A stretch of DNA of 64,000 nt from Escherichia coli (GCF_030384885.1 NZ_CP128613.1); one strand, 5' to 3'; positions 4,633 through 64,000 are shown, numbered from the stretch's first letter. Translations and numbers: made by a program. The notes: generated by a model not told the origin, from the sequence alone.

Positions 4633-4864
4633 GCGCTTCCCCCGCAAATTCATCATGCGATGATTTTCGCAGGGAAAACCTCGTCCGCACCCTGCCACTT
4701 TTTAGACTGAGCGCAGACCACCTATGTCGTTTTACTTAAAAGAAGAGGGAAGAAGGCTCCAGGCATCTCCATATGCGATTCTGGTTGGTAATACATCATA
4801 TTCCAGCTGCTCTTATCCGCCTACGTTATTGCATATACGGATAAGGCAGCCTCAATACGTACTT

Positions 4865-6430
4865 TTACTTGATATCTTTCACGCGCATACCGTTGATCTG
4901 TTCATCCGTGATGGTATTACCCGCTTTAAAGTAATCAACCACCGCGTGATAAACGTAATAACCGCCCGTCGTATTGCGCGCTTTACCCTCGGTAAACGCG
5001 GTAAAACCATCTCCACCATCAGCAAGGAAACTCTGAGTGGCAATGTGGTAAACCGTCGCATCTTCAATCGGTTCGCCATTCAGAGTCAGCGAGATAACCC
5101 GCTGACCAACCGGCTTGCTGCTGTCGTACTTCATTTCCAGGCCTTTCGATACCTGTAAAACGCCATTACTTAAACTTGCGCCGTGTTCCATCAAACTGCG
5201 TAATTGTTTACCCGTGAGTTCCATCGTCACCAGTTCGTTGGGGAACGGGAAGGTACTGATGACGCCACCCATCGTAATTGCACCCGCCGGGATCTCATTG
5301 CGGATACCGCCAGAGTTGGTTAACGCCAACTGGGTATTTTTACCCGCCGCTGCCAGCAAAGCGTCCGCCGCCAGATTCCCGAGAGAAGCCGATTCACCAT
5401 AGGCACGTTTCAATTCAACTGGCGATTGCGCCACCGTTTGCTGCACGACTTCATCCAGCTTTTTATTCCAACTATCAATCACCTGTTTTGTTTGCGGATC
5501 GGGCTTCCACTCGTCGGCGTAAAGGGTTTTAAGCTCGAAGTTTTTCACCGTAAAAGTGTGCGGCTTCTCTTTGTAGTCTAGAACCAGTTTACCCACATCA
5601 ATCCCGCCGCTGTCAGTGGAGAGGATTAACGTATTGCCGACTTTAATCGGTTCCGGCGTACCCACATGTGCATGCCCGGTGATCAAAATATCCAGCCCTT
5701 TCACCTGACTTGCCGTCTGAATATCTTTATCCAGTGCGCGGCGCACATCTGTGCCCCCCATACTGGACTGGCGGGCCGGAACACCTTCGTGAATCAGCGC
5801 AACGGTCAAATCAACCTTGCCTTTGAGTTCATCGATATAACGTTGTAGCCATTTAATTTCATCACGCGCCTCAATACCCACTCGCGTTGCCGCAGATACC
5901 GTATCATTAAAGGCAAATACACCGTGCAAACCAATCACGCCAATTTTCACGCCGTCTTTTTCAATGATGGTATAGGGCTTATCCCAGAATGATTTACTGC
6001 TGTTCTGATAAAAAACATTACCCTGCACAATCGGGAATTTTGCCTGACTCAACTGTAATAACGTATTGTCCCAGCCGTGATCAAATTCATGATTACCTAT
6101 AGTGGCCGCATCGAACGGCATGGTATTCATAATATCGATAATCGCCTTGCCTTTAGTCAGGCTGCTAATATACGGCCCGGTAAAATAGTCACCCGCATCA
6201 AAAAACCAGGTCGCTTTGTTTTTAGCTTTTTCTTGTTTAACAAGCGTAGTGATATTTGCCCAGCCGCCAATATCTCGTTTACCGTCAGCAATCCACGGCA
6301 CTTTATAAGGCTCTACATGTGCATGGAGGTCGTTGGTATAAATGATGGTGACATCTTTGGCGCAAGCCCAAAACGGCAGTGTTAATGCGATACCCGCAGC
6401 AAGCATTTTAATTTTCATAAACAATCCCAT
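4865..6430 (-). CDS. secreted bifunctional metallophosphatase / 5'-nucleotidase (UshA family), paralog 1
   Basis: 521-aa ORF; signal-peptide-like N-terminus; metallophosphatase motifs [23 protein letters not shown]; C-terminal 5'-nucleotidase domain. Confidence 0.8.
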
Positions 6431-56522: not shown

Positions 56523-57578
56523 TTAACGCAGGCGATTATAATCATCGACCATTTCGTTGTACTCACGTAATGCTCTCGGGAAAGAGTCGTCGACCATCCA
56601 ACTTGTGTTTGCATCCTGAAGTTGCTCTTTATCCCAGTCAGAATACGGAACTTTATCTCTGACGCGGCGAACATATTTTTTAGCCTCGAGTTGATACTGG
56701 TCTGCCGAATTAATGAACGAGAAATTCATACCGCCTTTATCCGCTTCTTTGGCCTGCGCCACCAGCGTTTCCAGTTCAGAGACTTTCTTCATTGCCGCAT
56801 CAACATCAAACTTCTCTTGCGAAATCAGGTTATTAATTTGTTTCGCTGAAATCATGACTGCCAGGGAGTAGTAGTGGAATGTTTTTCCTTCTGTTTCTTC
56901 AATATTTTTCAGTTCCGCAAGCTGACGCTTATCGTTAATTTCCTGAATCGCCGCATGATAAGATTCTGCTACAGGTTCAAAGGCTTCAAGATTTTTTAAG
57001 AATGTCTGGTGCAGCGTTTTCCCTTTCGCAAACGCATCGTCTTTATAATTTTCCTGGGTGTAATATTTATCCATTTCGTTAATGGTATTACCCAACGCCA
57101 CGGCAGCATCAATATAACTCACCGCCACGCCATCAATAGGTTGCAGCGCAGGCGTTAACGCCACAGCACTTTTTACGCCTTTTTCACACTCAGCGAGGTT
57201 GGATTCACTAATACCGTAGATACCATAAACAGTACGCTCTTCACCGGTAGGGCCCTGTTTAAAATCTTTCAGCCAGTCAGCATAACGCGCCAGACTGCTC
57301 TGTACAGGGATCTGTAACTTGTTGTAGCACTTGATATAGACATCCATTTTTTCGTCGAAAACCGCTTGTTCATCGACCACCGGTTGAGCAGGCGTTTCAG
57401 GTTTAACTTCTGCTTTTGCAACGGGAGCTTCAGCAGGTTTCGCTTCAGGAGCTGGTGCGGCAGGTTGACTATTGGCAGGCGGGGGCGTTTCTGTTTCGGA
57501 TTTTTTATCGTCACAACCCGTGAGACCGAGGGCCATTATGGCGACTATAATAGCGGAAGATAATAAATTCCTTTTCAT
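56523..57578 (-). CDS. yiiG: lipoprotein YiiG
   Basis: 351-aa ORF with lipoprotein signal (LTGCDDKK) and Pro/Ala-rich linker; recognised as YiiG. Confidence 0.85.
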   Translation of the reverse strand: MKRNLLSSAIIVAIMALGLTGCDDKKSETETPPPANSQPAAPAPEAKPAEAPVAKAEVKPETPAQPVVDEQAVFDEKMDVYIKCYNKLQIPVQSSLARYADWLKDFKQGPTGEERTVYGIYGISESNLAECEKGVKSAVALTPALQPIDGVAVSYIDAAVALGNTINEMDKYYTQENYKDDAFAKGKTLHQTFLKNLEAFEPVAESYHAAIQEINDKRQLAELKNIEETEGKTFHYYSLAVMISAKQINNLISQEKFDVDAAMKKVSELETLVAQAKEADKGGMNFSFINSADQYQLEAKKYVRRVRDKVPYSDWDKEQLQDANTSWMVDDSFPRALREYNEMVDDYNRLR

Positions 57579-57788
57579 TTAATTGCCTTATAAATAGATA
57601 AATAAGAGTGTGAATATAATAAATGAAAAAAGAAAATGTCACTACACGCGTTTTGTTTATAAATAAATCGATAATATTCATAAAATGAATAAGTCCTGTA
57701 ATTTAATTTCTAAATCACAGGACTTATTTTAACTAACGGCACAACCTTTGCGGGAGGGAGTGTCATGTCCCCCACCATTAATCATGCA

Positions 57789-60095
57789 CTACATCCCGTA
57801 GCGTTCGGCAATAGTGGCATGTTTCTCTTCATTCGCCCCGGCTTCTTTGGCGAGACGCCACCAGCACAACGGATGTTCCCAGTCAGCGGTCAATTCGTGC
57901 AAGGTCTTATCGATATCACCTTTAGAAATTGAACGCGGCGCACTGATAACAAAGTAGAATGCGGGAAGTGGCTGCGCATCTTCACCCTGATGACTGTCCG
58001 TTAACGTATAGTCGTCATTACTGTTGCTCCAGTAGTACCAGTTTCGTTCACGGAGCGCCTCACGGAAAGTATTAAACTCTTCTTCACCAGGCATGACACC
58101 TTCGCAGAACCAGGACTCGCCGTATTCGGTCGGGATAATGGTGTTCAGGCACCCATAAAGCGGAGTGAAATTCTTCCGTTCTTCCTCATCCTCTGGTTGG
58201 GTGTTCAATATTTCTGCATCGAATACCACAACTTCATCAACATGTTGCGGATAATCGGTCCGGTAAGTTGGCTCAATGATCCTTGCTGTTACCGGCCCAA
58301 TACGTTGAGCATAGTAATAGCGGTATTCATAATTTTCCCGGAAGCGGATGTTTAACAGCCCCCATTTTTCGTCAATAAAACCTTCGCCTTCCGTGAGCTC
58401 GATTTCCAGTTCAGCAGCAATAGCACGAACCAAATCCCATTGTTGCAGGATGCTGGCGGTCGCCATGATATCCCACTGGAGATTGCGAATATCTTCTTCA
58501 CGGCTAATCATCAGTTGCTGCAATTGTTGTAAATAATCCAGCTGTCGATCCCAGGCTTCCTGTTTTTGTGCTGCCCAAGAGCACATGCGATAAACGCCAA
58601 CCCACTCACGCCCTTTTTCGTGTTGCAGCAACTGTTGCCCAATCGACTCCAGTTCACTCCAGTCTTCCTGTTGGTTGAGCACTCGCGCACGGAACCACAA
58701 GGCCATATGTAGCAGCCCCGCCTGTTCATACTGCTTCGCCAGGTGCTCAATGGTTTGCAGATCGTCACGGTGGAGCAATAAATCCAACAGATCGAAGCAA
58801 AGACCATTATCTTCCTGGATGTGGCTTTCGACGTAGCGTTGCAGAAGTTCAATCGACTCATCAATCGCATTACAGGCGTTTAACGCATTGACCAGTTTGC
58901 CCAGCAATTCCGCATCATCTGGCGCGTTCAGGTAAGCGCGGCGGAATGTTTCGACGTCTTTTTCTGGATCTGGTTGCGTTTCTTCATCGCTATTTTCAGG
59001 TACTTCTACAACCGGACGAGCAAGCAACTCTGCTTCTTTGGCGGCGATTTTTTCACTCAGTTCGAGAAACTCACGATCAACCCCCAGTAACACGCGTAAT
59101 TTTGGCATGTGTCGCTGGGCCAGTTTCATCGCTATTTTGGCAACCCAGACGGATTCACGCTCCAGCGCCAGGGTAATTTGCAGTTTCGCCAGATCAACCA
59201 CTTTGCGGTGCGCTCCGGCCTGCGAGCGGTGCTCCAGCATTTTTTGGATGATGCGCGCCAGTTGCCAGTTGTTTCTTTGTGGATGACGGGGAAGTAACAC
59301 AGTAATGATTTTCAGCCATGACCCCCATGAATGGGGAGTCAGATCTGACCAACGCGGTAATTCCTCCCAGACTTCTTCGTCCTGCCCGCATAACGCCATG
59401 ATGTACAGTTTTTTGAGGTGATTACTAATGCGGTCGCGGCCCCAGTAATCATTGGCTTCTGTCAGCTCATCAATCAGTATGCGTGCTTCATCATAACGCT
59501 GAAGTTCAATCAGAATATCGGCACGAGTATAAAGTAATGCATCAATATCATCTTCCCCGGCTGCTTTAACTGCGTCGATTTGTCGATCCAGATAAGCCAA
59601 TGCCTCCTCTATTCTTTTGGAATCTATCAGTGCACTGGCATATTCAGTGGACAAACACTGAAAACAGCTCCAGGTCGGATCAATCCGCGCGATGGTTTCT
59701 TCACATACCGCCATACGTTCATTCGCCCAGCCAGGTGCATCAATATTTTCGTAGCAGGCGGATAAATCCTGGGTAACGCAGATAGATTGTGGGCAATCTT
59801 TTGTCTCTTCCCGGTGCGCTTTTTCAAACAGCGCCACTACGTCAGGCAGTACTTTTTCACCTTCTTCGCGGTTAGTCAGGCGATGGCGCATTTCCCAGTG
59901 ACCAATAAAAATCTCCAGCCACGGATTTTTTGCCACCTGGGTAAGTGCTTTTACTTCAGGTAACAGCGAATCGCACTTTTCCATTTGCAGGTGCATAACG
60001 CCTTCCGAATAATCATCGATAAGTTGCGGAATATATTCCTGCCCGGCATCGCGTAACTCCTTAGTATATTTGTGATACCACTCCCATATATCCAT
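57789..60095 (-). CDS. hypothetical 768-aa helical protein, translationally coupled partner of the Hsp90-like ATPase
   Basis: large acidic, predicted mostly alpha-helical protein with no motif I recognise; ATG lies 1 nt after the upstream stop with an AAGGAA RBS inside the upstream gene. Confidence 0.6.
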   Translation of the reverse strand: MDIWEWYHKYTKELRDAGQEYIPQLIDDYSEGVMHLQMEKCDSLLPEVKALTQVAKNPWLEIFIGHWEMRHRLTNREEGEKVLPDVVALFEKAHREETKDCPQSICVTQDLSACYENIDAPGWANERMAVCEETIARIDPTWSCFQCLSTEYASALIDSKRIEEALAYLDRQIDAVKAAGEDDIDALLYTRADILIELQRYDEARILIDELTEANDYWGRDRISNHLKKLYIMALCGQDEEVWEELPRWSDLTPHSWGSWLKIITVLLPRHPQRNNWQLARIIQKMLEHRSQAGAHRKVVDLAKLQITLALERESVWVAKIAMKLAQRHMPKLRVLLGVDREFLELSEKIAAKEAELLARPVVEVPENSDEETQPDPEKDVETFRRAYLNAPDDAELLGKLVNALNACNAIDESIELLQRYVESHIQEDNGLCFDLLDLLLHRDDLQTIEHLAKQYEQAGLLHMALWFRARVLNQQEDWSELESIGQQLLQHEKGREWVGVYRMCSWAAQKQEAWDRQLDYLQQLQQLMISREEDIRNLQWDIMATASILQQWDLVRAIAAELEIELTEGEGFIDEKWGLLNIRFRENYEYRYYYAQRIGPVTARIIEPTYRTDYPQHVDEVVVFDAEILNTQPEDEEERKNFTPLYGCLNTIIPTEYGESWFCEGVMPGEEEFNTFREALRERNWYYWSNSNDDYTLTDSHQGEDAQPLPAFYFVISAPRSISKGDIDKTLHELTADWEHPLCWWRLAKEAGANEEKHATIAERYGM

Positions 60096-60096
60096 T

Positions 60097-61932
60097 TTAT
60101 TTTCCTTGATTAATTAAGACAGGAATAACCTGAGTAAAATCTTCCAGTGCCTGATGTAAATCCCACTGCTGTTCTTTATTACCACTGGAGCACAAAATCA
60201 CTTTCAGCGATTTTAATAACCGTAATGCTGCCGCTGGCTGTTGATGGTGTTGTAATGCCGTCACCAGTTGCATGACACAGGGGTTATTAAGATTGATATA
60301 CAGACTTGAAGTTTTAGTCTTTTGGATTTGCGAGGTAAATTGCCGCGCCAGCATTAACGCTGCGGTGCTGATGCGTTTATCTGCGTCATCCTGTTCGAGA
60401 ATTTGTTTTAATTCTGCTTCGCGGTCTGGCGTGACCACGAGCGGTAAAACCGCTGGTTCGAAGCGGGAGATAATTAATTGCTCGCCGTCGCAAAGATGCT
60501 CTTCCAGATAAGCAACCTGCTCTTCAGGTAATTCTGCCAGGCTGAACAACTGCTCATTACCCGTTTGCGTACCGACTTCGATAATCCGGCAGTGATATAA
60601 CAGCGCCCAACGACGTAAAAATGGCACCACCGCATAACGATCGCCACGGGCTACGGGCCGTTGCAGAATATGAAACAACATCTCTTCAAAACCGCCGTCG
60701 CGGCTTAACAGAATATGAATGCTGTTATTAACGCGTAAATCCTTCGCCAGCAACGCCCCTTTTGACGTTGGCACCTGCAAGCGATCTTTGAGCAAATCAA
60801 ACAGACGGTCATCACATAATGCCGCACCGAGCAACGCTTCGTTGTGGCGCATTAATACACGCCGCCAGATTTCTGGCTGATTTTGTGCGAGATCGGACAA
60901 ACCAGAAATCAGCGCCTCTTTTAACGCCTCCTGCACCGCAACCCAGGTTTCGTCCCGCTGGAGATCTTCCCGGCTCGCCGTAGGCGTTAGTTTCGATGAC
61001 TCAATCACGCCGCCAATAAATCCGGCCCAGGGAGGTAACAACTCACGCGCTTCATCATCCAGTAACATACCGCGCAAAAACAGCGACAGGTTGCGGTTAT
61101 CGCTGGTGCCGTAGGTTGCGCCATCCTGAATCCATAAAATCCCGACCGCATCGCTCATACCCGCTGGCACCACCGGAATGGTGCAAATCGGTTCAAAGGA
61201 GGATTCAAACTGGGCGGCAAAGGCGAGATTTTTACGCTGCACCAGCGCGCGGTGTATGGTTACGCCTTCGGGGGCAACTTCACGCCACGGTGGTTGAAGT
61301 TTATTTACCGGCTCGCTGGCATCGCCGACATAGACCGGTTCGTGCAGCAATATGCAGTAGCGGGAAAGAACGCGGTTCAGCAGATTATTACTCGCCAGAT
61401 GGCTGTACTCTTCTTTGAGCGTCAGAATCACCTGCGTTCCCGGCGCCGAGGACTGATGCGGCGTAACGGTATATTTTTGCCCGTCGGTAGAGTGGTATTT
61501 CCAGCTCTGATCCGGCGTTTGCCAGGATGTGGTCAACACCGTGACCTCTTTCGCCAACACAAAGGCCGACAAAAAACCGAGGCCGAACATACCAATTAAA
61601 CCGGTGTTGTCATCCTGCTGGCGCAACATTCGGGTATAACCCACGCCCACTGTCGCCAGGAAGCCGTGAATTTCGCTTTCTGTCAGACCCGCACCGGTAT
61701 CGGTAATGGTGATGGTGGACTTCGCCACGTCTGCCACTACACGAATTTGGTTATCCTTTGGCGCATCGGGCTGCTCAATCCTGCGGCGAACGATCGCATC
61801 ATGGCCGTTCTGCACCAGCTCGCGCACGGCAACTACGGGAGTGGAGTAAAGATGCTTACTGAGCACCTCAATTAAACCGTTTAAATTAACTTCTGTAGAA
61901 TATGAACTGCCAGGTAACTGTAATGTACTCAT
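60097..61932 (-). CDS. Hsp90/HtpG-like GHKL (Bergerat-fold) ATPase family protein
   Basis: 611-aa ORF; GHKL motifs ELVQNGHDA (E-x3-N-x2-D), ITDTGAGLT (DxGxG), GMFGLGFLSAF (GxxGxG), in the order and spacing seen in HtpG; not the canonical htpG. Confidence 0.7.
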   Translation of the reverse strand: MSTLQLPGSSYSTEVNLNGLIEVLSKHLYSTPVVAVRELVQNGHDAIVRRRIEQPDAPKDNQIRVVADVAKSTITITDTGAGLTESEIHGFLATVGVGYTRMLRQQDDNTGLIGMFGLGFLSAFVLAKEVTVLTTSWQTPDQSWKYHSTDGQKYTVTPHQSSAPGTQVILTLKEEYSHLASNNLLNRVLSRYCILLHEPVYVGDASEPVNKLQPPWREVAPEGVTIHRALVQRKNLAFAAQFESSFEPICTIPVVPAGMSDAVGILWIQDGATYGTSDNRNLSLFLRGMLLDDEARELLPPWAGFIGGVIESSKLTPTASREDLQRDETWVAVQEALKEALISGLSDLAQNQPEIWRRVLMRHNEALLGAALCDDRLFDLLKDRLQVPTSKGALLAKDLRVNNSIHILLSRDGGFEEMLFHILQRPVARGDRYAVVPFLRRWALLYHCRIIEVGTQTGNEQLFSLAELPEEQVAYLEEHLCDGEQLIISRFEPAVLPLVVTPDREAELKQILEQDDADKRISTAALMLARQFTSQIQKTKTSSLYINLNNPCVMQLVTALQHHQQPAAALRLLKSLKVILCSSGNKEQQWDLHQALEDFTQVIPVLINQGK

Positions 61933-62207
61933 TTTTCAATACTCATAATCCATCACCTACTATTGAAAATACATTGCTGTTTTTTACAACCGGTGCAAGG
62001 TTTGTTATTTGCATTCACTCATCGGAAACATTTATTTATTGACGCGATGATTAAAACAAAATGTCTTATATAAATAATGATTAATTCTTAAAGGATTAAT
62101 GCGACTGGAGTATATCGATATAAACTGGAATTAACGAGATAATTTCTTGTGGTGAAATTATTATTTAAATGCTGAATAATATATTGAGGATTATTTAATA
62201 GAAAAAT

Positions 62208-62236
62208 AAAACCGCAATCCAGAATCAGAATTGCGG
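62208..62236 (-). terminator. rho-independent terminator downstream of fdhD
   Basis: hairpin ACCGCAATCC...AATTGCGGT with T-run on the minus strand after the fdhD stop. Confidence 0.55.
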
Positions 62237-62243
62237 TATTTCT

Positions 62244-63273: not shown

Positions 63274-64000
63274 ATGCAGGTCAGCAGAAGGCAGTTCTTT
63301 AAGATCTGCGCTGGCGGTATGGCAGGCACCACGGCAGCGGCACTGGGTTTTGCACCCAGCGTAGCACTCGCGGAAACCCGGCAGTATAAACTGCTGCGCA
63401 CCCGCGAAACCCGTAATACCTGCACCTATTGTTCCGTAGGCTGTGGGCTGTTGATGTACAGCCTCGGTGACGGAGCAAAAAACGCCAAAGCATCTATCTT
63501 CCATATCGAAGGTGACCCGGATCACCCGGTCAACCGCGGTGCACTTTGTCCGAAAGGCGCTGGCCTGGTGGATTTCATCCACTCCGAAAGCCGTCTGAAG
63601 TTCCCGGAATACCGTGCCCCTGGTTCTGATAAATGGCAGCAAATCAGTTGGGAAGAAGCGTTTGATCGCATCGCCAAATTGATGAAAGAAGACCGCGATG
63701 CTAACTACATTGCGCAAAACGCCGAAGGCGTGACTGTTAACCGCTGGCTCTCCACCGGAATGCTGTGTGCTTCCGCGTCGAGTAACGAAACCGGCTATTT
63801 AACGCAAAAATTCTCCCGCGCGCTGGGTATGCTCGCGGTCGACAACCAGGCGCGTGTCTGACACGGACCAACGGTAGCAAGTCTTGCTCCAACATTTGGT
63901 CGCGGTGCGATGACCAACCACTGGGTCGACATCAAGAACGCCAACCTCGTCGTGGTGATGGGCGGTAACGCCGCTGAAGCTCACCCGGTCGGGTTCCGCT
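63274..64000 (+). CDS. fdoG: formate dehydrogenase-O major subunit (selenocysteine-containing), 5' part; continues past window end
   Basis: Tat signal (RRQFFK); track ORF stops at TGA 63859-63861 but the frame continues as HGPTVASLAPTFGRGAMTNHWVDIKN..., matching FdoG with Sec at codon 196. Confidence 0.9.

Follow-up and report, generated by a model that had tools for sequence, protein, structure and literature searches.

The two-gene locus between yiiG and fdhD

In the present study, we analyzed a stretch of 64,000 nucleotides of Escherichia coli DNA (GCF_030384885.1 NZ_CP128613.1), which is referred to below as the window, and in it a locus between yiiG and fdhD. The segment 57789-61932 of this locus holds just two genes, both on the minus strand: an open reading frame (ORF) of 611 aa (60097..61932) for a predicted ATPase of the Hsp90 family, and an ORF of 768 aa (57789..60095) for a protein that we call the partner. 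RefSeq labels them 'ATP-binding protein' (WP_000105777.1) and 'hypothetical protein' (WP_000355936.1), respectively. The two genes form a strict module that is co-inherited across bacterial phyla. The features of the locus are as follows.

60097..61932, minus strand: Hsp90-family paralog ATPase, 611 aa, assigned from Pfam, NCBIfam, a PDB-profile comparison and an alignment with HtpG
57789..60095, minus strand: partner, 768 aa, isoelectric point (pI) 4.7, described from an AlphaFold2 model, a PDB-profile comparison and Foldseek
59616..60095, minus strand: partner residues 1-160, the conservation hot-spot in the homologue alignment
57792..58373, minus strand: partner residues 575-768, predicted ferredoxin-like/ACT-like alpha/beta domain
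60102..60107, minus strand: putative ribosome-binding site (RBS) of the partner gene, AAGGAA, in the final codons of the ATPase gene, read from the sequence
61929..61946, minus strand: mini-ORF of five codons and a stop (MSIEK; ATG AGT ATT GAA AAA TGA)
61933..62210, minus strand: AT-rich 5' non-coding region, GC content (GC) ~0.35, ~275 bp
62211..62237, minus strand: terminator-like hairpin of fdhD, a 10-bp stem followed by a T run; the sequence is kept in Escherichia species
57688..57728, minus strand: terminator-like hairpin at the operon end, with 18-nt arms that are 94% complementary

The stop codon of the ATPase gene (TAA, 60099-60097) and the start codon of the partner gene (ATG, 60095-60093) are separated by one spacer base. 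This 1-nt gap, together with the RBS inside the upstream gene, would be compatible with translational coupling, and the hairpin at 62211..62237 appears to mark the 5' limit of the pair's own transcription unit. An earlier description made from the sequence alone (hereafter, the sequence-only reading) had proposed a two-gene operon flanked by AT-rich DNA with a hairpin on each side. The ORFs, their spacing and the position of the second RBS agree with this description, and so do the flanks: the intergenic DNA has a GC of 0.35-0.41, with the hairpins at 62211-62237 and 57688-57728, and the two genes have a GC of 0.44-0.55, near the value of the host. Because RefSeq annotates both ORFs, purifying selection on them is strong and their full-length homologs number in the hundreds, the pair is not due to chance.

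The two proteins and their pairing across bacteria

The 611-aa protein had been read as an Hsp90-like GHKL ATPase, and the profile and alignment data bear this out. It has all three Bergerat motifs, ELVQNGHDA (residues 38-46), DTGAG (78-82) and GMFGLGF (114-120). In the profile comparison with the PDB and in the alignment with HtpG, ELVQNGHDA, DTGAGL and GMFGLGFLSAF align with the motifs of TRAP1 and HtpG. The key positions of the GHKL N-domain are E38, N42, D78 and the glycine-rich loop 114-120, and the catalytic arginine of the middle domain, R321, is found in 'TASREDLQ', which aligns to 'LSRELLQ' of TRAP1 and 'VSREILQ' of HtpG. These catalytic residues, R321 among them, are invariant in all eight aligned sequences (seven module ATPases and E. 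coli HtpG). Judged from these alignments, the protein retains all of the residues for an ATP-driven clamp cycle: in the N-domain the catalytic Glu, the Mg-binding Asn, the Asp that binds adenine and the Gly-rich loop, and in the middle domain the Arg.

Pfam matches were obtained to HATPase_c_3 (5.8e-9) and HSP90 (PF00183, 1.1e-7), and the best PDB matches were TRAP1 and HtpG. The best NCBIfam model was NF010683 (PRK14083, 'HSP90 family protein'; 288.1 bits, E 1e-85, profile positions 8-562 of 604), although the score did not reach the cutoff of that model (455 bits). Likewise, the score with the HtpG equivalog NF003555 (196.6 bits) was below the cutoff of 371. Because the ATPase falls below the curated cutoffs for both HtpG and PRK14083, it is placed in a related paralog subfamily. 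The identity with E. coli HtpG is 23% in an end-to-end alignment that includes the helices of the C-terminal dimerisation domain. A conserved acidic C-terminal tail (MEEVD/EEVD) was absent from the seven module Hsp90s, whose C-termini are variable and not acidic. Thus, the sequence describes a complete and presumably active member of the Hsp90 family that is distinct from HtpG. Residues 127-415 of the ATPase also match a family of phage proteins whose function is unknown, phrog_32952 (E 2e-19), and some phages appear to encode proteins similar to the Hsp90 middle domain.

The partner showed weak TPR (tetratricopeptide repeat) matches in Pfam, and searches of NCBIfam, PADLOC and PHROGs with it gave nothing, so that it belongs to no characterised family, in agreement with the sequence-only reading, which could not place it in any family. 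Its homologs are constant in length (716-801 aa) and align over their full length. An AlphaFold2 model of the partner (34 diverse homologs; predicted local distance difference test score, pLDDT, 91.7) shows two TPR blocks, of which residues 1-360 form the first, an alpha-solenoid, and residues 377-562 the second. The linker between them (361-376) is disordered, and the C-terminal part (~575-768) folds as an alpha/beta domain. The profile of the partner matches TPR proteins in the PDB down to E 2e-37 across residues ~150-545, and Foldseek and PDB-profile searches return generic TPR scaffolds alone. The ferredoxin-like/ACT-like C-terminal domain is found in this protein family alone and has no catalytic signature; furthermore, Pfam, the profile comparison with the PDB and Foldseek revealed no recognisable catalytic or effector domain in the partner. 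The protein had been described as acidic and helical. The first term holds (pI 4.7), and the second holds for residues 1-562 but not for the alpha/beta domain at ~575-768.

The N-terminal part of the partner is its best-conserved part: 45 of the 77 columns conserved at 90% or more fall in residues 1-160. The motifs in this part are NPWLEVFxRHW (with H66 and W67), C101-P-Q-S-x-C106-V-T-Q-D110 and W142-x-C144-x-x-C147. None of the four Cys residues varies among the 34 aligned homologs, and the homolog from Archangium has all four as well. Each of the Cys pairs, CX4C and WxCxxC, is placed at a helix N-cap; from the helix boundaries of the model, the pairs seem to be at opposite ends of a long helix, and two Cys sites would therefore seem likelier than one. 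On the basis of the model, we regard the partner as an acidic TPR solenoid with two parts that are unique to the family, the Cys module at the N-terminus and the domain at the C-terminus.

When one genome was scanned for each species, the partner was detected in at least 157 species; this number is a lower bound, since exact peptide seeds were used. The module is distributed among Gamma-, Beta- and Alphaproteobacteria, Myxococcota, Holophaga and one metagenome-assembled genome (MAG) of Chloroflexi. Of the 76 species-representative loci retrieved with enough upstream sequence, 75 have the Hsp90 paralog directly upstream of the partner and in the same orientation. The order of paralog and then partner is seen also in Xanthomonas, Pseudomonas aeruginosa, Cronobacter and metagenomic contigs, where the other neighbours are unrelated, and the junction is short or overlapping in other module loci. 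A query with the E. coli ATPase returned mostly near-identical Escherichia sequences. With a myxobacterial ATPase as the query, we reached the pair of Archangium violaceum, in which a 765-aa gene 38 nt downstream of the ATPase encodes a full-length homolog of the partner (hhalign E 4e-158).

Clustering of all flanking ORFs from 26 genera revealed no third conserved gene. Additional ORF clusters were considered as further conserved genes and ruled out, as they are shadow ORFs within the two genes. Of 646 strong representatives in a library of 1.8 billion proteins, the best 150 showed neither fusions nor alternative architectures. The distance matrices of the ATPase and the partner are correlated (r = 0.91 for 71 loci); therefore, the two proteins travel together. 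The ATPase is the better conserved of the two, with 51-62% identity where the partner has 31-41%.

Presence, origin and flanking regions in Escherichia

The pair was found in 254 of 5426 complete E. coli genomes (4.7%), with strains of sequence type 131 (ST131) among the carriers, and it is always single-copy and always chromosomal. In nucleotide identity to the window, the E. coli alleles fall at ~92%, 95-98% and 100%, and the window itself matches strain 2013C-4282 (NZ_CP027579.1) with 100% identity. Both genes are absent from K-12 MG1655, in which fdhD and yiiG are adjacent with a gap of 152 bp, in agreement with the sequence-only reading. The pair was never found on E. coli plasmids or phages. 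Matches of the module in the plasmid database were limited to three Pseudomonas and Xanthomonas records, namely P. aeruginosa NZ_CP131792.1 (847 kb; 430856-433099) and two of X. vasicola (14-29 kb), and these plasmid-labelled records may be mis-assigned chromosomal pieces. The single 'phage' match of the module was a mis-filed chromosomal contig of Salmonella.

The sequence-only reading regarded the segment as an accessory insertion. The results show that it is accessory, but they do not favor insertion. One explanation would be that some E. coli lineages recently acquired a 4.5-kb islet horizontally between yiiG and fdhD. The pair is missing from K-12 and from ~95% of the complete E. coli genomes, its flanks are AT-rich, the alleles diverge by up to ~8% in nucleotides, and the module has moved between phyla as a unit (the ATPases of Holophaga, the Chloroflexi MAG and Myxococcota have an identity of 50-56%), all of which could be expected of such an islet. 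However, the order fdhD, pair, yiiG is common to E. marmotae, E. fergusonii, E. whittamii, other Escherichia clades and Superficieibacter, and in Salmonella Infantis the pair is located a few genes downstream of fdhD. Between Escherichia species, the synonymous divergence (dS) of the pair tracks that of the adjoining fdhD; for the window and E. marmotae, the values are 0.44-0.58 and 0.57, respectively. Neither an integrase, a tRNA nor a bounding repeat was found as a mobile signature of the segment, in which the only repeats were short AT-rich chance matches, and the GC of the genes is near that of the host. Furthermore, in genomes without the pair, the operon-end hairpin immediately follows fdhD, which is the arrangement expected from a clean deletion. 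We thus consider a recent acquisition improbable. Because relatives have the pair at the same locus, its dS is like that of fdhD and mobile signatures are absent, it is simpler and likelier that the pair was present ancestrally and was lost from most E. coli lineages than that it was inserted. Recombination via the conserved flanks could also have produced the observed pattern of presence.

Both genes are under strong purifying selection. For the ATPase, the ratio of nonsynonymous to synonymous divergence (dN/dS) is 0.02-0.04; the partner has values of 0.05-0.11, and fdhD, for comparison, 0.03-0.06. The locus is syntenic among 22 Xanthomonas species and among 8 Stenotrophomonas species; synteny does not extend between genera. 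As for the other neighbour, the lipoprotein gene yiiG (56523-57578) shows 86% amino acid identity between the window and E. marmotae with a dN/dS of 0.21, and it evolves much faster than fdhD and the ATPase gene (0.02-0.06). At the start of yiiG and in its upstream region, most E. coli genomes share only ~90% identity with the window.

The region 61933..62210 is presumed to bear the promoter of the operon. In a promoter scan, the number of sigma-70-like sites in this region was equal to the shuffled expectation; no sigma-32 consensus was seen by eye, and an Rfam scan of the operon locus gave no RNA element. The 5' region is almost identical among E. coli, E. fergusonii and E. whittamii. In E. 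marmotae (retrieved locus L016, ~4840-4990), it contains an insertion of ~145 bp similar to repetitive extragenic palindromic sequences/bacterial interspersed mosaic elements (REP/BIME), with palindromes such as GCCTGATAAGCGCAGCGCATCAGGC, and this insertion is not present in the other Escherichia sequences aligned.

The TGA of the mini-ORF overlaps the ATG of the ATPase gene (AAATGA), and the sole strong Shine-Dalgarno sequence (AGGTGA) stands before the mini-ORF, not before the annotated ATPase ATG. Near the start of the ATPase gene, 'ATGAGTA' is present twice, 14 nt apart. The mini-ORF arrangement is kept in all five Escherichia sequences aligned; Superficieibacter, unlike Escherichia, has an upstream ATG in frame with the ATPase gene. 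The mini-ORF may be a coupling leader. Elsewhere in the window, an Rfam match to SECIS_3 (84 bits) is located at 63856-63914 on the plus strand within the gene for the formate dehydrogenase alpha subunit, and the ORF 63274..63861 ends at a UGA that is decoded as selenocysteine.

Possible function and comparison with known systems

The neighbourhood of the pair in P. aeruginosa (retrieved locus L006) matches the PAO1 map around PA1068-PA1079, and PA1068 and PA1069 are the presumed orthologs of the pair. Production of the PA1069 protein in biofilm and at high Ca2+ has been reported (PMC4053335; PMC5541441), and the gene was described as operonic with an Hsp90-family gene (PMC4053335). PA1069 is activated by AmrZ, with a peak in chromatin immunoprecipitation (PMC3946381), and its mRNA decreases ~4-fold at 46 C (PMC4957987). 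Because PA1069 is made in biofilm and high Ca2+ and is not heat-induced, these reports suggest a specialised role for the pair rather than a classical heat-shock role. Our literature searches revealed no functional study of the pair, and PA1069 appeared in them in omics tables only.

We propose that the locus is an operon for a dedicated second Hsp90-type chaperone and its TPR adaptor or co-chaperone, and we estimate the probability of this reading as about 0.5. In the proposed mechanism, the ATPase paralog and the partner would form a stoichiometric complex, in which the partner would act as the adaptor or co-chaperone: its conserved N-terminal module would dock on the dimer of the Hsp90 paralog and regulate it, and a client protein or ligand would be bound in its variable TPR groove and by its C-terminal domain. 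The paralog would then use ATP hydrolysis to remodel the bound client. The four invariant Cys residues would probably bind a metal or form a thiol switch that gates the activity. A more specific version, in which the partner is a true bacterial Hsp90 co-chaperone that docks without an EEVD tail and gates the ATPase by a metal or redox switch at the Cys residues, is put forward tentatively.

Several observations weigh against this proposal. The coupling of the partner to the Hsp90 paralog is a genomic one, and in the species-representative loci there is one deviation from it: Thorsellia anophelis (retrieved locus L083, 4755-7061) has a partner of 768 aa with no adjacent Hsp90 paralog. The 520-aa ORF upstream of this partner is unrelated to the ATPase, and this is the sole such locus among the testable ones; the Thorsellia ATPase may be encoded elsewhere in the genome or may have been lost. 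Because the paralogs have no conserved EEVD-like C-terminal tail, the binding mode of the eukaryotic TPR clamp is unsupported. The suggested role of the Cys residues is based on their conservation, and the presumed equivalence to PA1068/PA1069 on the description in one paper and on the gene neighbourhood as compared with the PAO1 map. Furthermore, adjacency and co-inheritance suit a client or effector partner equally well.

The last point leads to another explanation, in which the partner does not help the ATPase but is its one dedicated substrate or output. It would be a scaffold with four invariant Cys residues that senses metal or redox state, and the Hsp90 paralog would set its conformation or its state of assembly. 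The pair would then be a signalling or stress-sensor switch and not a general folding machine. A strict 1:1 operon with co-inheritance would be expected for a dedicated client as well as for a co-chaperone, and the lack of an EEVD-type docking tail, the concentration of conservation in a module rich in Cys, His and acidic residues, and the resemblance of the C-terminal domain to ligand-binding ACT/ferredoxin-like folds also fit this explanation, as does the presence of PA1069 in a co-immunoprecipitation list with a stress-pathway protein (PMC13411936). However, no kinase, cyclase, nuclease, DNA-binding or similar output domain can be recognised in the partner, long TPR solenoids are usually scaffolds for other proteins, and no conserved downstream gene that could be the target was found in 26 genera. 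We regard this explanation as rather unlikely, although the genomic evidence cannot separate it from the co-chaperone model.

An anti-phage function is the other half of the 'stress or anti-phage module' suggested by the sequence-only reading; a stress or chaperone role is plausible. For defence, the GHKL ATPase would sense infection and the large partner would execute defence or abortive infection. The pair is accessory in E. coli (4.7% of the complete genomes), and an ATPase encoded with a large unknown protein is a typical architecture of defence systems. The GHKL N-terminus of the ATPase weakly matches models of Tiamat TmtA and type II restriction endonucleases (E 5e-6 to 1e-3), and the PHROG match to a phage Hsp90-like family of unknown function can be added. 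In a few loci, toxin or peptidase genes are found near the pair: two hok/gef toxin genes are located just upstream of it in Cronobacter (retrieved locus L008, 4894-5596), and caspase-like Peptidase_C14 genes are within 3-5 kb in two metagenomic loci (L011, 1-1862; L101, 1-985). However, neither association is conserved elsewhere. The PADLOC matches to TmtA and the endonucleases span ~110 residues of profiles with 1300-1800 positions, so that the ATPase matches in PADLOC-DB v2.0.0 are limited to the generic GHKL fold, and the partner has none. Domain and fold searches found no nuclease, toxin, TIR, protease or pore-forming effector. In 26 genera there are no conserved defence neighbours, and the genes around the pair are housekeeping genes that differ between genera. 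The stable syntenic position in Xanthomonas, Stenotrophomonas and Escherichia species, and the absence from E. coli plasmids and phages, likewise do not point to defence, and the low dN/dS of the ATPase (0.02-0.04) with the invariant architecture is unlike fast-diversifying defence genes. A role in defence is therefore very improbable.

The co-occurrence of one Hsp90 paralog, nearly always, with a single architecturally invariant TPR protein in several phyla makes the question of bacterial Hsp90 co-chaperones, or of dedicated Hsp90 machines, a testable two-gene problem. It also concerns old lineages of Hsp90 paralogs that have been set aside as uncharacterised since 2004-2013 (PMC1525184, PMC3708813). 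Tractable hosts are P. aeruginosa (presumed PA1068/PA1069), Xanthomonas and E. coli, in which strains that carry the operon, ST131 among them, can be compared with strains that lack it. If the co-chaperone reading is true, partnerships of Hsp90 and TPR proteins would be ancient and widespread in bacteria, spanning Proteobacteria, Myxococcota, Acidobacteria and probably Actinobacteria, and would not be a eukaryotic invention. The module would then represent an unrecognised proteostasis pathway, linked to stress or biofilm, in P. aeruginosa, Xanthomonas, Stenotrophomonas and E. coli ST131. In addition, the present case indicates that accessory pairs of an ATPase and a large unknown protein in E. 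coli are not all defence systems or insertions.

Among the known systems, HtpG (E. coli b0473; NF003555) is similar to the ATPase in its three-domain layout, Bergerat motifs, catalytic Arg loop and size (624 aa against 611 aa). However, the ATPase differs from it in sequence (23% identity; 197 bits against the cutoff of 371) and is a second copy besides htpG, and in contrast to HtpG the mRNA of the presumed P. aeruginosa partner falls on heat shock. PRK14083 is the best NCBIfam model for the ATPase, yet the score of 288 bits, below 455, indicates a related subfamily and not that equivalog. Chen et al. (2006; PMC1525184), who described the HtpG groups B and C, placed the second Hsp90 copies of gammaproteobacteria in group C, and Press et al. 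(2013; PMC3708813) left the 'hsp90B/C' lineages explicitly uncharacterised; an obligate TPR partner is not mentioned in these papers. Judged from this literature, the ATPase may belong to group C.

The GHKL defence proteins (Tiamat TmtA, MORC-like and type II restriction endonuclease-associated proteins) have the N-terminal Bergerat fold in common with the ATPase, as does NF050001. The likeness is limited to ~110-180 N-terminal residues (PADLOC E 5e-6 or worse); the ATPase instead has the middle and C-terminal domains of Hsp90, with no nuclease or effector and with genomics that are not defence-like. With Hsp33 and other redox-switch chaperones with Cys4-zinc sites, there may be an analogy only, in that the partner is a putatively chaperone-linked cytoplasmic protein with four invariant Cys residues; Hsp33 has no sequence or fold similarity to it.

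Bacterial Hsp90 has been described as having no identified co-chaperones (PMC7926864). In eukaryotes, Hsp90 works with TPR co-chaperones (Hop/Sti1, Tom70, UNC-45, Tah1/RPAP3 and CHIP), which the partner resembles in the size and shape of the scaffold. The MEEVD/EEVD tail is a property of the eukaryotic pairs and is not conserved on the paralog here, and the Cys-rich N-terminal module and the ferredoxin-like domain of the partner have no counterpart in the eukaryotic co-chaperones. The present pair also differs in that its genes are in a single operon, and there is no homology beyond the generic TPR. The relation would thus be a functional resemblance rather than membership. Overall, the pair is not a new type of system, but appears to be a widespread, ancient and uncharacterised two-gene Hsp90 machine.

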